DNA from: Minisyncoccota bacterium
GTDB lineage: Bacteria > Patescibacteriota > Minisyncoccia > Phycocordibacterales > UBA2100
DNA: 64,000 nt
Reading direction: 5' to 3'
Assembly: GCA_031291875.1 (NCBI GenBank)
Contig: JARLIE010000165.1
Span: forward strand, 1,119 to 65,118
Made by a program: the position numbers and the translations under genes. Under the pieces are notes generated by a model. It saw nothing but the letters and a program-made list of their open reading frames with translations, ran no database searches and was not told the DNA's origin. How positions within the stretch are numbered: the stretch's first letter is position 1; the number at the start of each line of letters is the position of its first letter. Shown piece after piece: positions 37,314-59,609 of the stretch.

Positions 37314-37387
37314 GGGCGGTTAGCTCAGTTGGTTAGAGCGCACGCTTCACACGCGTGAGGTCACAGGTTCGATTCCTGTACCGCCCA
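37314..37387 (+). tRNA. tRNA-Val (anticodon CAC).
   Basis: Hand-folded cloverleaf: acceptor GGGCGGT/ACCGCCC, D arm GCTC...GAGC, anticodon loop TTCACAC, T arm ACAGG TTCGATT CCTGT, discriminator A. No encoded CCA. A TATACT -10 box lies ~15 nt upstream. Confidence 0.85.
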
Positions 37388-37430
37388 CAGGACAAAGAGA
37401 CGCCGAGTGTGTATAGTAATCGCTACGTTC

Positions 37431-38197: not shown

Positions 38198-38268
38198 CGG
38201 GCTGTAGTATACCGGTAGTACGCACGCTTCGGGTGCGTGTAGACTGGGTTCGATTCCCAGCAGCCCGA
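38198..38268 (+). tRNA. tRNA-Pro (anticodon CGG).
   Basis: Acceptor CGGGCTG/CAGCCCG, anticodon stem CACGC/GCGTG with loop TTCGGGT, T loop TTCGATT, discriminator A. Confidence 0.8.
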
Positions 38269-38310
38269 CATGGCTTAGGTCGCTCTCATCGGAGCGATTC
38301 TTGGCGTGAA

Positions 38311-38381
38311 CGGGCTGTAGTATACCGGCAGTACGCAAGCATGGGGTGCTTGTAGACCGGGTTCGATTCCCGGCAGCCCGA
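38311..38381 (+). tRNA. tRNA-Pro (anticodon GGG).
   Basis: Near-duplicate of the first tRNA-Pro with anticodon arm CAAGC ATGGGGT GCTTG. Confidence 0.8.
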
Positions 38382-38404
38382 AACGATCAGACAGGTATTC
38401 CAAA

Positions 38405-38440
38405 AGCAAAATGACCTCGCCTTGAGCGGGGTCATTTTGC
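38405..38440 (+). terminator. Hairpin terminator-like element after the tRNA-Pro pair.
   Basis: AAAATGACCTCGCC...GCGGGGTCATTTTG inverted repeat. Confidence 0.4.
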
Positions 38441-38739
38441 GAGCGGGTGTGGACACATCGTATATTACTTCGAACCGACTGAAAACCTATCTAGAACGCT
38501 TTTGGGAGTACTATCAGACCAGTCCGGTATTGCAGGAATTGCTTGAAGATGCAAAGCCGTTCGCGGTTCAGTAGGGGCACCATGAGAGTGTAGAAGTATG
38601 CGGTAGGGCGCAACAACTACGACCAGAACCCCACTAACTAGTGGGCATGTAGTGGAAGCCGTCAAATATCGGTGAAATAACGGAGAGATGTGAAAACGGG
38701 ACGCTCCTTCTCTGGCAACTTTCGATCTGTGGCGTGTCG

Positions 38740-39045
38740 CAAAACTCGGAAAACTCACTGCAAGAACTACTCTCGAAACTTCTAGGGGCCATTACAGCGA
38801 CTTTGTCTAAATTTAGAGCCATAATTTAGCACTCTCTCAAAGAAATAAAATGGAGTTTCGCGAGTGGTTTGTGTAGTAAAACCAGCTAGTTTTCCGACAC
38901 AAAAATACGTTCGACTTTCAGAGGTCATACGTGCTCCGGGAACTCCAAAAACTCACTCCGGAAATTGTACAGGAACCCCTGAGTTGGTCGACGCTTTTTA
39001 ATCTATAAATAGAGCCATTTATTGAGCGCAGCTTAGAAAATTGTT
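38740..39045. repeat. Two degenerate ~100-nt direct repeat units in an AT-rich non-coding region.
   Basis: Unit A: aaaactcggaaaactcactgcaag...ctaaatttagagccataatttag. Unit B: aactccaaaaactcactccggaa...ctataaatagagccatttattgag. They are about 195 nt apart. Confidence 0.5.
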
Positions 39046-39102
39046 GTGAGTTTTTTGACAGTTTTCGGAGCGAAAATGTCGAGTTTTTGGAGCAGAAAAT
39101 CC

Positions 39103-39792
39103 TCACTTGGATGGTCGTTTCAGAGGTTTATTCAGTAGGGTCAGTTTCGGCACGTCCCTGCCGTCCCACGCGGTCTTTAAGCGGATCTCCGTCACCTGGC
39201 CGCTTTCTTGGTACAGCTTCACAACGAGCACCGACTCACCGAGTGCGCCGCGTGACAAGGCGGCCACATCGTTGCCCGCAGCAACGGCTAGCCGAAGCGA
39301 CCGATCTGCAAGCATTTCCCGGTCCAGCATGTTGTTGAAGATGTCGAGGTAAACGGTCTGGTGCGGGTAGATGTCTCTCACGGCGGCACCGTCTTTGTTC
39401 AGCTGCCCGTGCGTCCATAAAAGCGGCATCGGGAAAAAGTCCTCACGCCGGTCTCCGCTGTCGATGATGCTTTCTATGTACGCCTCAACCGACCTCGCCG
39501 TGAAAGCTCCTTTGTTTTCGATGATGACTCTGCCGACATGAAGGATCGCCATTGACTCCGAGTCATCGACTTCTGATGGGTCTCGGTGAGGTGTGACGGT
39601 CACTCCTTGAACGACGAGATCGCTTTTCTCGGGCCGTCGCCTCCACCATTCGCTCAAAGGTGGGGACAAAATACCGATCGCGAGGGCGACTACGACTGCC
39701 CAAAACTCAGGCGTGAGATAAAAGAGCGTTGAGAAATGAGCTGCAATACTTTGGAGCGCACCTATCACCGACTGGAGTTGGCCCGGTTGCAT
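39103..39792 (-). CDS. Hypothetical membrane-anchored protein.
   Basis: 229 aa with an N-terminal TM (FWAVVVALAIGILSPP). Confidence 0.4.
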   Translation of the reverse strand: MQPGQLQSVIGALQSIAAHFSTLFYLTPEFWAVVVALAIGILSPPLSEWWRRRPEKSDLVVQGVTVTPHRDPSEVDDSESMAILHVGRVIIENKGAFTARSVEAYIESIIDSGDRREDFFPMPLLWTHGQLNKDGAAVRDIYPHQTVYLDIFNNMLDREMLADRSLRLAVAAGNDVAALSRGALGESVLVVKLYQESGQVTEIRLKTAWDGRDVPKLTLLNKPLKRPSK

Positions 39793-39830
39793 CCTTCAAT
39801 CTTACTCCTCATTGAGATCTCTGCACCAAT

Positions 39831-40346
39831 TTAATTGGTCAAATATGGCGTAGCCAAAGAGACGAAGCCTTCAATTGAAGTGCATTTTTGTCCATTCACC
39901 GTACAGTCGTCTATCGCCGCATCCGCCGCATTTATCGTTCCATCTGGGTTCAAGCCGAATGTCATACTGCCTAGAGTTGCGTTAGCTTCAACATCAACTA
40001 GAAAACGATTGTCAGAAAAGCCCAAATCGCTATTGTTGGACGTAGAGATAACATGGAACTTCCAGTCAACCAAGATAAGACATTTATTAAGCGTGGTGTT
40101 GTAGTGATCTTGATAATTTAATGAGTCTCCCGCGGCGACGTTAACACTAGTCGCGCCCCATTTATTTTGGAAATAAGTTGCGGCATCCTGGGCGCATGAC
40201 CTGCTTAAATTGAAGTTTGTACTTTGCGTTTGTGCTGTCGCTGGTTGGGTTACTGCTGAACGGTCAGAGCTTTGCACAATAACGTATGCACCTACGGCTA
40301 AAATTGCAGCTCCAATACCGATCAAAATGATGTTATTCGAGTTCAT
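39831..40346 (-). CDS. Hypothetical secreted protein (signal peptide/anchor, 4 Cys).
   Basis: MNSNNIILIGIGAAILAVGAYVIV... N-terminus. 171 aa. Confidence 0.4.
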   Translation of the reverse strand: MNSNNIILIGIGAAILAVGAYVIVQSSDRSAVTQPATAQTQSTNFNLSRSCAQDAATYFQNKWGATSVNVAAGDSLNYQDHYNTTLNKCLILVDWKFHVISTSNNSDLGFSDNRFLVDVEANATLGSMTFGLNPDGTINAADAAIDDCTVNGQKCTSIEGFVSLATPYLTN

Positions 40347-40361
40347 AAATATGGCCGCTGC

Positions 40362-41126
40362 TTATTGCGCCTGCATCGTCACCGACGTGCTTGTGCCGTA
40401 TCCAGTGAAAGTCACAGTGTTGGTGCCAGGCTGCGTAAACACGTAATTGAACTCATAGAAAGGATACGTGCCGTAGACTCCGCCAACCGTGAACATGCTT
40501 TCTGATCCCGATCCGTGAAGCACCATGTTTTGGTTGGGATCGGTCGTCGTTATCGTTATGTCGCCGCCGTCGGTCGCGCCGCCCTGTGGTGTAACGACGA
40601 TTACGCCGAGATCGGCATACTGACTGTCTGAAAGGTTACCCGCTTGGTTTAATTCATTTGAGCACGACGCGCCGGTTGGTTCTACGGGCGAGCATCCGTC
40701 CGCAATTGCTTTTATTATCGAAGACGACGCCACAGTGTGCTGAGCGTTTGTATTATACGAATTGGATCCGACCGAATTGTTTACCCCGCTTCCTGAGCTG
40801 TAGCCCACAACCATGAGGCTGTACTGACTCTGCATGATTGTTGAGGTGGCCGATTGCGCCGAAGCTGTGGGGCTGGGCGTACTTGATATCGTTTGCGAGC
40901 TTTGTGGAGCCTGTGGCGCATTTTGTGCGGGTTGCTGAGCCGTTATCGTAGCTGCCGCGCCGATCGGTGAGGTTGAAGCCGCAGCAATTGCTTGGTCGGC
41001 CGATTGGATCGCGTCATTGACTATTGCGTTTGCCTGAGCTCGTAAATCTGCCGGCACGTTTGTTGCCGACTGGAGGAGAATAAGAAGCGCGAGTGCTGTT
41101 TTGAGTAATGCGATGGCCTGAGACAT
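40362..41126 (-). CDS. Hypothetical secreted Ser/Thr/Gln-rich protein.
   Basis: Signal peptide MSQAIALLKTALALLILLQSATNVPA, then low complexity, then a Gly/Thr-rich C-terminal domain. Confidence 0.4.
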   Translation of the reverse strand: MSQAIALLKTALALLILLQSATNVPADLRAQANAIVNDAIQSADQAIAAASTSPIGAAATITAQQPAQNAPQAPQSSQTISSTPSPTASAQSATSTIMQSQYSLMVVGYSSGSGVNNSVGSNSYNTNAQHTVASSSIIKAIADGCSPVEPTGASCSNELNQAGNLSDSQYADLGVIVVTPQGGATDGGDITITTTDPNQNMVLHGSGSESMFTVGGVYGTYPFYEFNYVFTQPGTNTVTFTGYGTSTSVTMQAQ

Positions 41127-41219
41127 ATGCTTGTGCTAAGCGGGTAATGTCTGAGGCGGGAGAAAACACAAAGCCCGCCACCAGGAGGCCTTGCGGCCAC
41201 ATAAGAGTTTCCCCTTATG

Positions 41220-41262
41220 ACGTACAGCACGCCCTGAATGACGGGTTTTCTGTGCTGTACGT
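41220..41262. promoter_or_regulatory. Perfect 11-bp inverted repeat (candidate operator) in a divergent promoter region.
   Basis: ACGTACAGCAC-N21-GTGCTGTACGT between the secreted-protein operon (minus) and the wHTH regulator (plus). Confidence 0.5.
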
Positions 41263-41391
41263 TTTCGCGCCATGCCACCGATTTCTCGATGGTTTAGGCA
41301 CTAGCCTTGCGGCTCGATATTGGTTGTGTGTGATAACGATAGCATAGCGAGCCGTCGGCATAAAGTGCGCTCCGTGATAAAGTCAGCGTTA

Positions 41392-42084
41392 ATGATTGAC
41401 CAGTATCTAGCGCAAAGGGCCATCCTAGAGGCGCTAGAGGGCAAACTTGAGGCCATGAGAGGTTCCGGCGAGCTCGGGGCCGATACTATTGTCGAGCTCT
41501 ATTTCTTTGACGATCTGGTACAAAAGCATAAAACAATTTTTAGAGTTGCGACCGTTGAAGACGTCGCTCTCGCGATCTCAAAAGTTGAGGAAAAATCGGA
41601 CGGTCGTTTTAAACTCCTCTCACTCAATCCCTCCATAGCTGATCGGGACGTAGTAAGAGTTGCCCTAACACACGAGGCGGGTAGGCCGTTGACTGACATT
41701 TCAAATCTCTATTGGAAACTAAAATATAAAGAGGGGTCTAGTGTGACAAATGCGCCTCTCGACTCAAAGATATTTTGGTTGACTCCCCGCGAGATATATT
41801 CGACGATCTCAAATGCCAAGAGGTCATTCTCCTTTCGGCCAGGCGGCGTGCAGTTTCGTCTATTGCGCTGGTTTTCCGAACACAAAGGGTTCACTGGCAG
41901 TAAAGAGCTCGCGCAGGAACTCGATACGACAACGCGAACGATTGCCACAGACATCGCAAAATTGAAACGTAAGGCCGATGACGCTTTTGGTCTCGACGAA
42001 AGTAGTTTTATCGAAAGCAGCCAGGGCGAGGGCTACCGGCTTGCCGCAGCAATAAAAATCAAACTGGATCATGGTACGTCGTAG
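41392..42084 (+). CDS. Transcriptional regulator with a C-terminal OmpR/PhoB-type winged-helix DNA-binding domain. The N-terminal domain is atypical and possibly a degenerate receiver.
   Basis: The C-terminus ...QFRLLRWFSEHKGFTGSKELAQELDTTTRTIATDIAKLKRKADDAFG...GEGYRL matches the trans_reg_C pattern. The ORF opens at 41320. Confidence 0.55.
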   Translation: MIDQYLAQRAILEALEGKLEAMRGSGELGADTIVELYFFDDLVQKHKTIFRVATVEDVALAISKVEEKSDGRFKLLSLNPSIADRDVVRVALTHEAGRPLTDISNLYWKLKYKEGSSVTNAPLDSKIFWLTPREIYSTISNAKRSFSFRPGGVQFRLLRWFSEHKGFTGSKELAQELDTTTRTIATDIAKLKRKADDAFGLDESSFIESSQGEGYRLAAAIKIKLDHGTS

Positions 42085-42193
42085 CTGCTGTTGATAAAGT
42101 CCGCCTGCTCCTCTCAATTTACGACTCCTTTCGGAGAGCGATTGTAGCTATGCCGTATATACGCCGTAGCGTCCTCTCTCGCAAAATTGAGAG

Positions 42194-42427
42194 GTGAAAC
42201 AAGAAGCCCATGCCACAGATGCGAGCGACTTTCCGGTTGCCTTTAGCTCCGAACATGCCCACGATAATACGCGAGGGCCGGTCGTTTCTGTGGCAGAATA
42301 TAGAAAGCTCGCTGCGGACGAAACGAGCAGCGATGATGACATCCGACGGCGATTGCAATACTTGGAAGCGCTGTGTAGGCATGTGATCCGAGAGGAACTC
42401 AAAAAATATGTCGATGAACAAAATTGA
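42194..42427 (+). CDS. Small acidic hypothetical protein upstream of, and overlapping, the recombinase start. A recombination directionality factor role is possible.
   Basis: 77 aa ORF. It overlaps the recombinase ATG by 20 nt. Confidence 0.3.
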   Translation: MKQEAHATDASDFPVAFSSEHAHDNTRGPVVSVAEYRKLAADETSSDDDIRRRLQYLEALCRHVIREELKKYVDEQN

Positions 42428-44189
42428 AAAAGAAATGCAGCAGCTCGTACAGAACGCCAATCGCTATGTTGGCAGAGAAGGCCTTGTTTATGCGCGTGTC
42501 TCGAGTAAACGGCAAGAGTTAGAAGGTCACGGACGCGAAGGGCAGGAGGAACGCTGTAAGCAGGATTTGCGGTCAGTTGGCGTACCCTATTGCCGCACAT
42601 TCCCCGACACTTTCACCGGCGCTGGCGACTTTATGAAGCGTCCAGCAATGCGCGAGATGCTGGCGTACATAGACTCCAATCCGCACAAAAAATACGTAGT
42701 GGTATTCGATGATCTAAAACGATTTGCGCGAGATGTTGAAGCGCATATCAAATTAAGAGCGGCCTTCAAGTTCCGAGATGTTGAATTACGCTGCCCCAAC
42801 TACAATTTCGATGAGACTGAAGAGGGAGAGTTCGCAGAAATTATATTTGCCGCCCAAGCACAGCTTGAGCGCAAGCAAAATCGGCGTCAGGTCATCCAAA
42901 AAATGAAAGCTCGCCTAGAGCTTGGATACTGGCCCTTTGCCGGTCGTAGAGGATACGACATGGTCAAAGACCCTATGCACGGCAGATTGCATGTTCCAAA
43001 CAAGGAGGGCAAAACAATTATGCGGCAGGCACTTGAGGACTTCGCCTCAGGCAATCTGGTACGCAGAGTTGATGTTGCGCGTTTTCTCTTCGATCGCGGC
43101 TTCTGGAAAAAGTCAAAGAGAACTCCCGAGCATTTCATCGACGACGCCACGGCGATGTTGCAGGACGTATTTCACGCGGGCTACGTTGAATATCCTAAGT
43201 GGGGCGTGTCGCGCCGCAAAGGTCGGCATAAAGGAATAATCTCGTTGGATACACACGAGCTCATACAGAAACGATTGAAAAAGGACGTCGCCAGCGCGCG
43301 TATTCGATTGGATATATCGCCAGAGTTTCCCTTGCGCGGATTGCTTGTATGTCCTGACTGCAAAGAAAAGCTCACCGGCGCACCCTGCAAAGGTGGCCCT
43401 AAAAAATACAGCTACTATTACTGCAAAAATAAAAAATGCGCCCTTTATTCCAAGATGTTGCGAAAGGCAGATGTGGAAAGGGACTTCAACAATCTGCTCC
43501 GCCGCAATCGCCTCAAGGCAGATCTAGATGCGGTCGTGGAGCTAACCTATGATCGGGTGTGGAAGCAGGAGGTCGTCGATGTAAGGCGACAACAAGCTCT
43601 CAAGGAGCAGCAACGAGAGGATTTGCAGCAAAAGATACGTGACCTTTCCGAGCTTGCCCGTACGACCACGTCAGCAACAGTAAAAAATGTCTACGAAAGC
43701 CAGATCGAAGAAGCCGCCAACGAGTTGGAACAAAAGGGGCCTGCAAACGCCTCAAAACGCGACCTCAGAGTGCCTTATCGAACTGCACTCGCTAAGTCGA
43801 CTGCTGTGCTGAAAAACCCAATAACCATATGGGAAAAGGTGGATGTGATGGAAAAACATCGCCTCTATTTTTTCCTTTTCGAGGCGCGTTTGCCTTACAC
43901 CAAAGGAGAGGGCTATCGAACTGGCGATTTACTAAGCAGCACAAGGGTTTTTGAGGAGTTTGCCAACGCAAACTCGGATGATGTGGACCTGAGGGGAATC
44001 GAACCCCTGCCTCCGCAATGCGAATGCGGCGTTTTACCACTGAACTACAGGCCCGAGTGTCGCAATATCCTATCAGCACTACCGGATATTTACAATTTAC
44101 TCGAGCCCGTTCGAAAACTCCTTAGCGAGCAGCCACTTTTACTTTCTCTCCGCAGCGCAAACAGCGAGTCTGCGCCAATCTTGTCTTGA
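42408..44189 (+). CDS. Large serine recombinase (resolvase/invertase N-terminal catalytic domain, recombinase domain and zinc ribbon).
   Basis: Catalytic region GLVYARVSSKRQ...; the resolvase fold; a later zinc-ribbon CPDCKEKLTG...YYYCKNKKC; and a coiled-coil. The last ~70 codons overlap an antisense tRNA-Ala and a small minus-strand ORF, so the C-terminus is uncertain. Confidence 0.8.
   Translation: MSMNKIEKEMQQLVQNANRYVGREGLVYARVSSKRQELEGHGREGQEERCKQDLRSVGVPYCRTFPDTFTGAGDFMKRPAMREMLAYIDSNPHKKYVVVFDDLKRFARDVEAHIKLRAAFKFRDVELRCPNYNFDETEEGEFAEIIFAAQAQLERKQNRRQVIQKMKARLELGYWPFAGRRGYDMVKDPMHGRLHVPNKEGKTIMRQALEDFASGNLVRRVDVARFLFDRGFWKKSKRTPEHFIDDATAMLQDVFHAGYVEYPKWGVSRRKGRHKGIISLDTHELIQKRLKKDVASARIRLDISPEFPLRGLLVCPDCKEKLTGAPCKGGPKKYSYYYCKNKKCALYSKMLRKADVERDFNNLLRRNRLKADLDAVVELTYDRVWKQEVVDVRRQQALKEQQREDLQQKIRDLSELARTTTSATVKNVYESQIEEAANELEQKGPANASKRDLRVPYRTALAKSTAVLKNPITIWEKVDVMEKHRLYFFLFEARLPYTKGEGYRTGDLLSSTRVFEEFANANSDDVDLRGIEPLPPQCECGVLPLNYRPECRNILSALPDIYNLLEPVRKLLSEQPLLLSLRSANSESAPILS
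43984..44054 (-). tRNA. tRNA-Ala (anticodon CGC) with the G3:U70 identity pair.
   Basis: The reverse complement folds as GGGCCTG TA GTT CAGTGGTAA AAC G CCGCA TTCGCAT TGCGG AGGC AGGGG TTCGATT CCCCT CAGGTCC A. The acceptor stem has the G3-U70 wobble. Confidence 0.8.
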
Positions 44190-44277
44190 TGTATTTATTG
44201 CCGCATTCGCATACGACGACGGCGATCTCGTTCGGATTATCAATCCACTTACCGTCTTTGAAGAAAGTTTTTCCCAT
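44122..44277 (-). CDS. Small zinc-ribbon protein (51 aa) immediately downstream of the DEAD-box helicase gene.
   Basis: Manual translation gives MGKTFFKDGKWIDNPNEIAVVVCECGNKYIKTRLAQTRCLRCGEKVKVAAR with a CxC...CxxC pattern. It is below the ORF-track length cutoff. Confidence 0.4.
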   Translation of the reverse strand: MGKTFFKDGKWIDNPNEIAVVVCECGNKYIKTRLAQTRCLRCGEKVKVAAR

Positions 44278-58424: not shown

Positions 58425-58496
58425 TCCCCGGTGGCGCAACGGTAGCGCAGCTCCCTGTTAAGGAGTTGGTTGTAGGTTCGAATCCTACCCGGGGAG
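58425..58496 (+). tRNA. tRNA-Asn (anticodon GTT).
   Basis: Acceptor TCCCCGG/CCGGGGA, D arm GCGC AACGGTA GCGC, anticodon loop CTGTTAA, T arm GTAGG TTCGAAT CCTAC, discriminator G. No encoded CCA. Confidence 0.85.
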
Positions 58497-58500
58497 CAAA

Positions 58501-58529
58501 CTTGACAAGATAGATTACGTATTCTACAA
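58501..58529 (+). promoter_or_regulatory. Near-consensus sigma70 promoter (TTGACA-17nt-TACAAT) for the small ORF at 58569.
   Basis: cTTGACAagatagattacgtattcTACAATtac, followed by a GGAGGT RBS 6 nt before the ATG. Confidence 0.45.
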
Positions 58530-58568
58530 TTACATTTACGAGATCTTTCAAGTCTACTGGAGGTAGCA

Positions 58569-58841
58569 ATGGACATATCCATCTTCCTGAAATACCCCGG
58601 ATATAGGAAGGGACTTCGCCTTGTCATCACGGATACGAACAGCTGGCATTTCGTCTACAACACGGAGCGGAAAGAGGGGGACGAATTTTTTGATGGCGGC
58701 CATGCATCGCTCTGTGCACTTCTCAATCGATTCAGGGAAGTATTCGGGCAAGCGTTGGGTGATGAATGGTATTGTCATGTCGTCCAGCAACTATTCCGCT
58801 ATCACGTGCGAAAGGTACGACAGAAAAGAGCACGCGCGTGA
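58569..58841 (+). CDS. Small hypothetical protein (90 aa) with a strong promoter, RBS and terminator.
   Basis: RBS GGAGGT. Downstream terminator CCGCCCAC...GTTGGGCGG TTTTTTT at 58846-58885. Confidence 0.5.
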   Translation: MDISIFLKYPGYRKGLRLVITDTNSWHFVYNTERKEGDEFFDGGHASLCALLNRFREVFGQALGDEWYCHVVQQLFRYHVRKVRQKRARA

Positions 58842-59024
58842 TCGTCGACCCGCCCACGGAGCCGCTCGGCCTCGGTTGGGCGGTTTTTTTATGTTAATTT
58901 CAGTACCTGCAATTCATCGAATGCTTTTATCCAATCCACGGTTCTGAACTTGTCCAACGAAGGGAGCATATTTGACACTACTTATAATACGTGTTATTTT
59001 TAATTTGGAAAGGAGGTGATGTAA

Positions 59025-59210
59025 GTGAAAAAGAATCTTGCTGAAGTTTTGCAGCAGGACGATGTGCAATCTGAGCTTCTGTTTCATCAAGGATGCTCCG
59101 TGTACTACGCGGGCAATAAACAAGAAGCTATTCGGCTCTTTGAAGAGTCGTTGAAACTTTGTCCTGATAACCAAAACGCGAAAAGTGCACTGGAACAACT
59201 AAAAAAATAA
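59025..59210 (+). CDS. Small helical (TPR-like) protein with a GTG start.
   Basis: AGGAGGTG RBS 7 nt upstream of the GTG. 61 aa (...AIRLFEESLKLCPDNQNAKSALEQLKK). A terminator hairpin AACCTCGTCA TCTG ACGAGGTT lies downstream. Confidence 0.45.
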   Translation: MKKNLAEVLQQDDVQSELLFHQGCSVYYAGNKQEAIRLFEESLKLCPDNQNAKSALEQLKK

Positions 59211-59609
59211 ATCACATCACTACATGCGATGAGGAAATCCTTCGTCTGGCCGACCGTAAATCCGGCAAACGGCCTGAAGGGCACCACCTATGAGTGGCTA
59301 TGGCAACCCATCGTAATTTCTTTCCAACCTCGTCATCTGACGAGGTTTACTGTTTTATGAGAAATCTGGAATGCGAAAATAGTAATCTAAATTGATGATA
59401 CGGGTTCTAACGTCGTCAAAGATACGGAGCAAGTGTTTTTAAATCTCAATTGTGTAGTTTATTTTTGATGTCAATTACGGCTTCAAGTCGCGTCTAGCTA
59501 TCTATGGATGTATCTCTTCGCTATTTGGGCGTTTTTTTCCGCAGCTTTCGAGACGTACTACAACAACTCGATGTACAAGTAGGTTCCATTCCTGGTTTAC
59601 AATACAGAG

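Follow-up and report, generated by a model that had tools for sequence, protein, structure and literature searches.

A window of 64,000 nucleotides (the whole stretch of DNA analysed here, from a contig of a Minisyncoccota bacterium) very probably contains a ~5.5-kb integrative element that belongs to a family widespread in Patescibacteria and was inserted at the 3′ acceptor end of a tRNA-Ala(CGC) gene by the large serine recombinase (LSR) which it encodes, the attachment site of the element (attP) being located inside the reading frame of the recombinase itself. That the window carries an integrated mobile islet with a serine recombinase next to a tRNA gene had been proposed from the letters of the window alone (hereafter, the original prediction) and is borne out by the LSR domains, by the splitting of the LSR gene, by a family of relatives with unrelated cargo and by the free circle of one relative; the presence of the attachment site within the recombinase open reading frame (ORF) had gone unnoticed. 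The architecture of the element, its junctions, the division of the gene, the circular form of the relative and the selection acting on the detached tail are all established by sequence comparison.

The recombinase gene and its two pieces

The features on which the argument rests are the following.

~38452–43987: integrated element, 5,534 bp, with the hexamer GTGGAC at both ends (38449–38454 and 43983–43988)
42408–44189, plus strand: 593-codon LSR ORF in its integrated form, with Resolvase and Zn_ribbon_recom domains and a 3′ end running antisense through tRNA-Ala
42408–43988, plus strand: conserved body of the LSR, residues 1–527, with catalytic domain, recombinase domain and zinc ribbon with coiled coil
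43989–44189, plus strand: read-through tail of the LSR, 66 codons, antisense of tRNA-Ala and its 5′ flank, unconserved as protein
43983–44054, minus strand: tRNA-Ala(CGC), the integration target (ARAGORN; Rfam, 68.7 bits)
38449–38574, plus strand: detached C-terminal piece of the LSR, VD followed by TSYITSNRLKTYLERFWEYYQTSPVLQELLEDAKPFAVQ and a stop, its frame matching that of the LSR across the core
38449–38454, plus strand: attL core GTGGAC at the left junction, placed by comparing the junctions of six integrated loci and two attP forms that are contiguous
43983–43988, plus strand: attR core GTGGAC, opposite strand of tRNA-Ala nt 69–73 and of the first trailer base
38406–38440, minus strand: host-side hairpin with a 15-bp stem (an inverted repeat, with TTTTGG next on the minus strand), outside the element and part of the reconstructed attB flank

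By its domains, fold and invariant residues the enzyme of the window is an LSR, recombination itself being predicted. Pfam recognizes a Resolvase domain (PF00239, E = 2.8e-18) at residues 27–171 and a Zn_ribbon_recom domain (PF13408, E = 2.8e-6), PF07508 being undetected in this protein though recorded for many homologues, and the PHROG match is to an integrase (4.9e-50). More than 1,000 significant homologues emerged from a search of 5.8 billion proteins, the best 120 being 49–70% identical to the window LSR, mostly ~540 residues long and, where the source is named, from Patescibacteria; relatives of the element are carried by hundreds of genomes of these candidate phyla. Residues Y28, R30, V31 and S32 of the serine motif (YxRxSS) and the zinc-ribbon cysteines C315, C318, C339 and C344 are invariant in 18 aligned homologues, and the ORF of the window is open and has kept all the residues that are invariant in the family. 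When solved structures were searched with the LSR sequence, zero matches resulted, and fold comparison alone succeeded: the AlphaFold model of P0079, a homologue with a contiguous reading frame (mean predicted local distance difference test, pLDDT, of 82; long helices at 366–439), aligns over ~540 columns with the SPbeta, Bxb1 and phiC31 integrases (E = 1e-11 to 6e-18), and its matches, which span E values from 6e-18 to 1e-10, include the C-terminal domain of the LI integrase.

In the same 18 homologues conservation runs to ...NSDDVD, where V526 is invariant, and collapses after V526/D527, the codon of D527 (43986–43988) falling within the terminal bases of tRNA-Ala, a gene of the opposite strand. 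The 593-codon recombinase of the original prediction is present as an ORF, but its last 66 codons are tRNA read-through and not conserved protein. An antisense continuation into a tRNA or transfer-messenger RNA (tmRNA) gene was recognized by a regular expression in at least 94 of the 120 best homologues, and by eye in ~105; these unconserved tails consist of GIEP, GFEP or RIEL and then of strings like TSSLQMRRST or PPQCECGVLPLNYRP, which are the antisense of a tRNA T-arm and acceptor stem. The gene overlapped by the 3′ end of the LSR is tRNA-Ala(TGC) in loci L081–L083, tRNA-Ala(CGC) in L084, L170 and L171, an aberrant tRNA-Ala-like gene in L172 and a full tmRNA gene in L178.

Two of these targets deserve a description of their own. 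The tRNA-Ala-like gene at L172:11570-11645 (also in L173 and L174) has G3:U70 and normal acceptor and T arms, while its anticodon arm, as seen by eye, seems aberrant (7-bp stem, 9-nt loop), and the gene is called by neither ARAGORN nor Rfam. In L178:15919-16237 the LSR stands at the 3′ end of a tmRNA (ssrA) gene, with the junction GTGGAG and not GTGGAC. The tail of the L178 enzyme, which is identical to that of P0055, is of the type “...VEM.GIEP.C..”, found in 32 of the 120 homologues, and this subgroup probably targets tmRNA, since L178, one of its members, sits at such a gene. Both targets, tRNA-Ala and tmRNA, are alanine-accepting RNAs.

Only two of the 120 best homologues, P0079 and P0117, end otherwise, namely as ...VD..LKTYLSRFWDYYQSSPSLQKALENA, with the pattern ...LKxYLSRFWxYYQxSPxLQKxLE. 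The corresponding peptide of the window is VDTSYITSNRLKTYLERFWEYYQTSPVLQELLEDAKPFAVQ, encoded by 38449–38571 (39 codons past VD, 38455–38571; stop codon, 38572–38574), i.e., at the far end of the element and on the same strand as the LSR. A tail piece occupies the same position and strand in L083, L170, L171 and L172 and is always in frame with the LSR across GTGGAC; in tblastn searches the tail of the window matches these far-end pieces and the C-termini of P0079 and P0117 with E values of 1e-10 to 1e-15. When the 41-residue tail was compared by phmmer with 1.84 billion representatives, 20 proteins were found at E ≤ 1e-3 (best, 2.8e-10), all of them 39–201 residues long and matching at their C-terminus, with unrelated sequence before VD in 11 of 11 inspected. 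With a profile of 22 tails the only matches were 20 small ORFs, all annotated as hypothetical, and a word-indexed search with the single tail sequence yielded no candidates. In the reverse test, which started from a tail-only ORF (P0141, in L178), a LOOT RNA, a MerR regulator, a small ORF and an LSR with its 3′ end in a tmRNA gene were found downstream on the same strand.

The substitution pattern of the tail indicates purifying selection at the protein level, the proportions of synonymous (pS) and non-synonymous (pN) differences in codons 13–34 being 0.81 and 0.215, respectively (pN/pS = 0.26 beyond the att arm). In codons 1–12 pS is 0.40, a low value that fits an added constraint at the DNA level, since these codons double as an att arm. 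In the P0079 model the tail forms two helices (522–543 and 545–553; block-mean pLDDT 72–80) that follow the zinc-ribbon region.

Overall, the split LSR was seen in six integrated loci, at tRNA-Ala or tmRNA genes: the window, L083, L170, L171, L172 and L178, the last five elements measuring 10,568, 6,019, 8,984, 5,460 and 5,920 bp, respectively. On the other hand, LSR and tail form one ORF in the circle represented by L175 and L176 and in the linear contig L177. The gene of P0079 is on L175 and L176, two 5,417-bp contigs from two independent samples that are rotations of one 5,387-bp circle, as judged from a terminal overlap of 30 nt, a rotation of 109 bp with 0 mismatches and a 391-residue ORF that closes over the contig ends. 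It could be asked whether the overlap between ORF and tRNA gene and the small ORF at 38422–38574 are accidents of ordinary intergenic DNA, the shared core being as short as 7 nt. Nothing further speaks for chance, and its probability is virtually nil: it is refuted by the same in-frame architecture recurring at six integrated loci and in both contiguous forms, by the similarity of the tails (tblastn E down to 1e-15) and by the phmmer result (E = 2.8e-10 against 1.84 billion proteins).

Further relatives are incomplete. The element of P0002 is interrupted in two assemblies (L081 and L082), which break ~1.7 kb upstream of the LSR, and is traversed by a third (L083); breaks of this kind are the pattern expected of strain-variable or multi-copy sequence. 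L179:10001-11087 is apparently a decayed element, consisting of a tail piece and one gene of 207 codons next to an intact-looking hairpin and a tRNA-Ala(GGC), with no LSR.

Attachment sites and the target tRNA gene

The junctions of the window element read ...GCGAGCGGGTGTG-GA-CACATCGTATATT... (attL) and ...CTCGGATGATGTG-GA-CCTGAGGGGAATCG... (attR) and have TGTGGAC in common (38448–38454 and 43982–43988). This 7-nt identity is all that was found of the att-like repeats for which the original prediction had proposed to compare 38400–39100 with 43950–44100, no long repeats being present. The two junctions share just GTGGAC in L171 and L172 and TGTGGA in L178, the range over the six loci being 5–7 nt, and the exchange must therefore fall inside GTGGA; within it the crossover would most likely occur at GA (38452–38453). 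The reconstructed attP of the window (...CTCGGATGATGTGGACACATCGTATATT..., with ...AAACTCGGATGATGTGGACACATCGTATATTACTTCGAACC... as the predicted junction) contains a perfect inverted repeat, GATGTG-GA-CACATC, whose inner 6 bp are symmetric around GA. Over seven attP sequences the dyad symmetry peaks at the same dinucleotide, with 67 complementary positions compared to 51–59 for the neighbouring dinucleotides.

On the tRNA strand the hexamer corresponds to G69-U70-C71-C72-A73 plus the first trailer base. As read from the sequence, the mature tRNA-Ala, including the G3:U70 alanine identity pair, is unaltered by the insertion and the 3′ trailer alone has been replaced. Since the mature tRNA is kept and there is no tRNA fragment to carry, the element would leave no copy of the tRNA-Ala 3′ end, and such a copy (at least 14 of 20 positions) is in fact absent throughout the 64-kb window.

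In the reconstructed attB (...GCGAGCGGGTGTGGACCTGAGGGGAATCG..., with ...GGTCATTTTGCGAGCGGGTGTGGACCTGAGGGGAATCGAACCCC... as the predicted junction) the order is hairpin-GAGCGGGTGTGGAC-tRNA, and the hairpin at 38406–38440 would stand 11 nt past tRNA-Ala. This hairpin is probably the intrinsic terminator of tRNA-Ala, from which it would have been parted by the insertion. The reconstruction is mirrored in L170, where a tRNA-Ala(TGC) site without an element reads hairpin, TTATTT, GTGGAC, tRNA and adjoins Pterin_4a, Ddl and UvrC, this being the same site that is occupied in L083.

The tRNA genes on the other side of the element are as follows.

37314–37388, plus strand: tRNA-Val (ARAGORN, Rfam)
38198–38269, plus strand: tRNA-Pro(CGG) (ARAGORN, Rfam)
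38311–38381, plus strand: tRNA-Pro(GGG) (ARAGORN, Rfam)

ARAGORN and Rfam confirm both the tandem tRNA-Pro genes and a tRNA-Ala antisense to the 3′ end of the recombinase ORF, as had been stated earlier. Their role is another matter. The original prediction had the islet delimited by both, in the manner of a classical tRNA-bounded island with the tRNA-Pro pair and tRNA-Ala as ends and att-like repeats in 38400–39100, and this is hardly credible in the light of the junction mapping, by which it is refuted. Both tRNA 3′ ends do point to the islet, and the same tRNA-Pro ... tRNA-Ala bracket exists in L171, the nearest useful relative (GreA 93% and PBP 66% identical to those of the window), where one flank is made up of tRNA-Val, tRNA-Pro(CGG) and tRNA-Pro(GGG) and the other of tRNA-Ala(CGC), greA and PBP. 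However, the left junction of the window element is 71 nt beyond tRNA-Pro and past the hairpin; a host gene (TspO) and ~175 nt intervene between tRNA-Pro and the junction in L171; L170 has its tRNA-Pro genes on the other side of tRNA-Ala; the other members of the family are found at tRNA-Ala or tmRNA genes without tRNA-Pro nearby; and the tRNA-Ala 3′-end copy that such islands would display is the one not seen in the window. tRNA-Ala is the target and the tRNA-Pro pair a mere neighbour. What lies between the flanks of L171 is a ~9-kb element with an LSR 56% identical to that of the window and a wholly different cargo; the finding of the same genes at the same place with no recombinase, which had been named as evidence against a mobile islet, was not made.

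Two other candidates for the ends of these elements were considered and discarded. A role of tRNA-Pro as second att partner was suggested by the inverted likeness of the 3′ ends of tRNA-Pro and tRNA-Ala, which is mere generic T-arm similarity. The 19–20-nt copies of tRNA 3′ ends in L170 and L171 are not an element boundary, being part of a host-side segment that also flanks an unoccupied tRNA-Ala in L170. This segment, ~175–200 nt long, is located at tRNA-Ala 3′ ends (L170:5350-5547, L170:18940-19125 and, more weakly, L171:2408-2582); in L170 it flanks one occupied and one unoccupied tRNA-Ala gene, both copies being clearly homologous over most of their length. At occupied sites it opens with the 19–20-nt copy, which reaches up to the middle of the T-loop, and it ends in a terminator hairpin, the hairpins inside it differing in sequence between the L170 and L171 genomes. 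Rfam gave no match in L171:2300-2800 and none at the gathering threshold for the L170 copies. The segment could be a small RNA or the scar of another type of tRNA-targeting element.

The conserved core and the exchangeable cargo

From the comparison of the elements, the core of the family comprises the tail piece, a LOOT RNA, the LSR and a small ORF that is translationally coupled to it, together with, in most cases, a gene for a regulator; the remainder is exchangeable. The core features of the window that remain to be introduced are these.

41186–41300, minus strand: LOOT RNA (Rfam RF03000), 80.3 bits against a gathering score of 46.4, E = 1e-15, model positions 1–121 of 121
41320–42084, plus strand: regulator candidate, 254 residues from the first TTG start or 230 from ATG 41392, with a C-terminal winged helix-turn-helix (HTH; HTH_11, E = 2.1e-8)
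42194–42427, plus strand: small ORF, 77 residues, its last 20 nt shared with the start of the LSR

DNA comparison of the elements revealed a 158-nt non-coding block that is 85% identical in the window and in L171 and that Rfam identifies as LOOT. In the window the RNA, which has GNRA-type loops, lies ~60 nt upstream of the first cargo ORF and on the same strand; in general, it always precedes by 45–70 nt a gene on its own strand, which differs from element to element, and it is usually divergent from the operon formed by regulator, small ORF and LSR. Eight of the nine distinct elements contain LOOT (window, L083, L084, L170, L171, L172, L175 and L178), L177 being the one from which it is absent, and no LOOT was found in ~2.0 Mb of control Patescibacteria loci picked via an unrelated marker and searched with a covariance model built from the family's own instances. 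Compensatory changes affect 18 of the 27 predicted pairs over seven instances. The 11-bp perfect inverted repeat 41220–41230 / 41252–41262, which had been read as a palindromic operator, is the long stem of this RNA. LOOT may regulate genes of the element. A function as a guide resembling a bridge RNA was considered and dropped: its longest complementarity to attL or attR is 5–8 nt, does not exceed that of shuffled controls and is inconstant in position.

The small ORF of 77 residues has no Pfam or PHROG match. Homologues with 44–56% identity adjoin the LSR on its upstream side and overlap its start in all eight of the fetched relatives that gave a tblastn match (L081-084, L170-176 and L178), the circle included, and the ORF, too, is present in eight of the nine distinct elements; L177 has at the same position an 81-residue ORF with no detectable match. 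The small ORF is thus a conserved partner of the LSR, with the control of directionality or another regulatory function as its candidate role. An orphan homologue at L002:6012-6338, with no LSR nearby, is apparently what is left of a decayed element. The protein encoded by 41320–42084, in turn, is a candidate repressor of the element. It is not the OmpR-type regulator formerly suggested, Trans_reg_C scoring 17.4 bits against a cut-off of 26.2 and a receiver domain being absent; PADLOC returned for it one sub-threshold WYL-like match. The other elements have a different regulator at that position (MerR_1, HTH_17).

The left part of the element is taken up by a spacer and by the cargo.

38575–39102, no strand: AT-richer non-coding spacer after the tail piece, 528 nt, GC 0.443
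39103–39792, minus strand: cargo ORF, 229 residues, one hydrophobic segment at about residues 23–48
39831–40346, minus strand: cargo ORF, 171 residues, N-terminal membrane anchor or signal segment, 4 Cys, GC 0.438
40362–41126, minus strand: cargo ORF, 254 residues, signal-like N-terminus, Ser/Thr making up 25% of the residues

The three minus-strand ORFs, the divergent HTH gene, the small ORF and the 593-codon recombinase of the original prediction all exist. Each of the three cargo proteins, which are presumably exported or anchored in the membrane and whose part in host interaction is conjectural, has a single N-terminal hydrophobic segment and none has a Pfam, PHROG or PADLOC match, the PADLOC search thereby leaving the idea of a defence-system cargo in the window unsupported. 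Neither these proteins nor the HTH protein have a counterpart in the other elements examined. Indeed, the cargo is unrelated from element to element, and that of the relatives includes a type I restriction-modification system with DUF4145, PIN_12 with an SDH protease, an Mrr-like nuclease (accompanied in L171 by seven unknown ORFs), FtsK_gamma, AbiEii with a mannitol-dehydrogenase-like enzyme, and Trypsin_2 with Terminase_2.

The ~700 nt of non-coding DNA described earlier (38382–39102) hold the coding tail at 38449–38574, and what stands of that claim is the remaining 528 nt, which are non-coding and do contain degenerate repeats. These are two units of ~197 bp that agree at 91 of 201 positions in their alignment, each with the motif CTCSRAAAACTC and an inverted copy of it ~125 nt apart, so that the spacer has four copies arranged as inverted pairs, out of six matches in the 64-kb window. 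The spacer has no Rfam match above chance. It is unconserved in the other elements, from which the motif is also missing, and the idea of iterons or of an origin was given up for these two reasons.

The compositional break seen in the original prediction is real, the GC content being 0.500 in the element and 0.536 in the rest of the window (z = -3.4), with all 475 same-size windows outside the element higher than the element, but it is modest, the backbone having 53.6% and not 55% GC; gene by gene, the GC content is a mosaic ranging from 0.438 to 0.562. A prophage origin was rejected, PHROGs matching the integrase alone and 2.9 million viral contigs containing 5 distant relatives (27–38% identity).

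As for the surroundings, a zinc-ribbon-like ORF of 51 residues (44122–44277, minus strand), into the 3′ end of which the read-through tail of the LSR ORF extends, directly follows a DEAD-box helicase gene in the window and in most relatives (loci L001–L125; 47–83% identity), the two genes constituting a conserved unit. Elsewhere in the window the stretch 58500–59600, just past tRNA-Asn (58425–58497), has the lowest GC content (0.44), no convincing ORF and no recombinase, and may be another remnant at a tRNA gene.

Proposed mechanism and relation to known systems

With attP inside the LSR frame, 39 codons before the stop, integration would split the LSR gene, keep the mature tRNA and cut the tRNA from its terminator hairpin. 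Recombination would take place inside the GTGGAC that attP shares with nt 69–73 of tRNA-Ala and one trailer base; the mature tRNA-Ala sequence would remain intact with loss of the hairpin, the last 39 LSR codons would land at the opposite end of the element (38455–38571) and the body of the LSR would continue as antisense read-through of the tRNA. By excision a 566-residue LSR would be restored on a ~5.5-kb circle, a reaction of which the window copy is presumably still capable. The exchange of the C-terminal tail may alter activity, directionality or stability of the enzyme between the free and the integrated state; furthermore, the integrated LSR gene converges head-on with the tRNA gene, and this may damp its expression. 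Transfer genes being absent, spread between cells may, speculatively, rely on DNA uptake.

A more specific proposal, which is possible but can be advanced only tentatively, is that this DNA rearrangement acts as a directionality switch: the 566-residue form with its helical 39-residue tail would be integration-competent or excision-masked, loss of the tail, together with the small ORF, would give an excision-poised or silenced state, and LOOT would be a dedicated regulator.

Several observations weigh against this interpretation. Neither an attP junction nor a circular form of the window element itself was seen, and the circle of L175/L176 could in principle reflect a tandem array and not a free molecule. 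An empty site of the same species was found neither by looking up the exact protein of the DEAD-box helicase nor in 185,579 species genomes nor in metagenome contigs, the closest relatives of the helicase being 75–80% identical and synteny being lost beyond the helicase and the zinc-ribbon ORF; insertion polymorphism at the window locus is unsupported because no sequence of the same species lacking the element was found. Apart from the integrase, no Pfam or PHROG match to virion, packaging, conjugation or relaxase genes is present in the element, oriT not having been searched for. The half of attB that is not tRNA varies between loci, and this would be unusual if the protein reads both half-sites. 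Finally, any effect of tail, small ORF or LOOT on recombination is at the stage of a candidate, proposed from sequence.

In view of these points it may be asked whether the element arrived as described but no longer excises and has become fixed in the chromosome, as a grounded remnant. The failure to find an empty site, an attP junction or a circle for the window element would be explained, and decayed relatives exist (L179, L002). This outcome is nonetheless unlikely, given that the LSR ORF is open with all its invariant residues, the tail piece is conserved and keeps an open frame in phase with the LSR, both cores agree in all 7 nt, LOOT is full length (80 bits) and the small ORF is present. 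Far less probable is a domesticated recombinase performing a programmed excision in the service of the host, e.g., to reconnect tRNA-Ala to its terminator. LSRs do drive developmentally regulated excisions (SpoIVCA, SprA, XisF), and the insertion does part tRNA-Ala from a terminator-like hairpin. However, the cargo differs at every locus, the genes occupied vary from genome to genome between tRNA-Ala isoacceptors and tmRNA, occupied and empty sites coexist in one genome, and a free circle carries unrelated cargo. The integrative element with its own, presumably still functional LSR is the interpretation retained here.

For gene exchange among Patescibacteria, whose genomes are tiny, the family represents a concrete and widespread vehicle of 5–10 kb, with defined ends, for defence systems and surface proteins. 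For the biology of recombinases, it offers a serine integrase for tRNA-Ala and tmRNA genes that rewrites its own C-terminus, and two natural forms with which C-terminal control of directionality can be tested. It also places LOOT, an orphan Rfam family, in a defined genetic context. The attP/attB pairs, moreover, could serve as integration tools for organisms without genetics, the target GTGGAC, which covers U70 of G3:U70, being common to the tRNA-Ala genes examined.

No description of this element family was found in the literature searched, the coverage of which is incomplete. The closest enzymes are the LSRs of phiC31, Bxb1, SPbeta (SprA), Listeria A118 (LI integrase) and TnpX/TndX, which have the same order of domains (resolvase catalytic, recombinase, zinc ribbon with coiled coil) and likewise a very short junction identity with a non-palindromic core, whereas the window junctions are unlike those of tyrosine-integrase islands. 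A GA core is also used by TnpX/TndX, and the adjacent small ORF of the window could act as a directionality factor as in these systems. Unlike the LSRs described so far, the window family targets the acceptor end of tRNA-Ala and tmRNA genes, has attP inside the recombinase ORF, carries LOOT and produces a protein whose C-terminus differs between free and integrated state, from elements of 5–10 kb in which no phage or conjugation genes were found. According to a 2014 survey, tRNA genes were not among the known targets of serine integrases (PMC4383910).

Islands of the Islander/TIGER type and the tycheposons of Prochlorococcus are likewise small cargo islands at tRNA or tmRNA genes, often with defence cargo, and 27 of 937 tycheposons encode an LSR (bioRxiv 10.1101/2020.12.28.424599). 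The Islander type, however, has a displaced tRNA fragment at the far end and a tyrosine integrase, neither of which is found in the window, where 5–7 nt are shared. The window family differs further from these islands by its Patescibacteria hosts and by having no replication module that could be found, while a split recombinase gene and LOOT are not described for them in the literature surveyed. LOOT itself stems from a survey of 224 motifs (PMC5737381) and is listed by Rfam as a small RNA gene, no function or genomic context being stated in the available portions of these sources; in the present comparison it is linked to a single family of LSR elements.

Concerning the tail, the extreme C-terminus of SprA has been proposed to tune directionality (Abe et al. 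2021, as cited in PMC12286644), and C-terminal extensions of LSRs may replace or block a directionality factor (PMC12286644). In SprA-type control the C-terminus is constant, whereas in the window family the tail, a conserved extension after the zinc ribbon that is predicted to be helical, would be added or removed by DNA rearrangement.

In the literature surveyed an attP inside a recombinase ORF is described for tyrosine recombinases alone. Indeed, Mx8 IntP/IntX of Myxococcus and the archaeal SSV-type integrases have attP within the integrase coding sequence and a tRNA gene as target; integration of Mx8 gives the integrase gene a new 3′ end without destroying the enzyme and changes its behaviour (PMC6070905), and SSV-type integrases split their own gene upon integration (PMC7253208). 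The resemblance is architectural only: the Mx8 and SSV enzymes are tyrosine recombinases, whose attP contains a tRNA fragment and gives rise to long direct repeats, whereas the window enzyme is a serine recombinase. Furthermore, the SSV-type event leaves two inactive pseudogenes, whereas in the window 39 C-terminal codons alone are exchanged and residues 1–527, with all the recognised domains, stay on one ORF. Should the tail prove to be a switch, the family would constitute the first serine-recombinase counterpart of the self-splitting integrases of the Mx8/SSV type, specific to alanine-accepting RNA genes, and a major vehicle of accessory genes in Patescibacteria.

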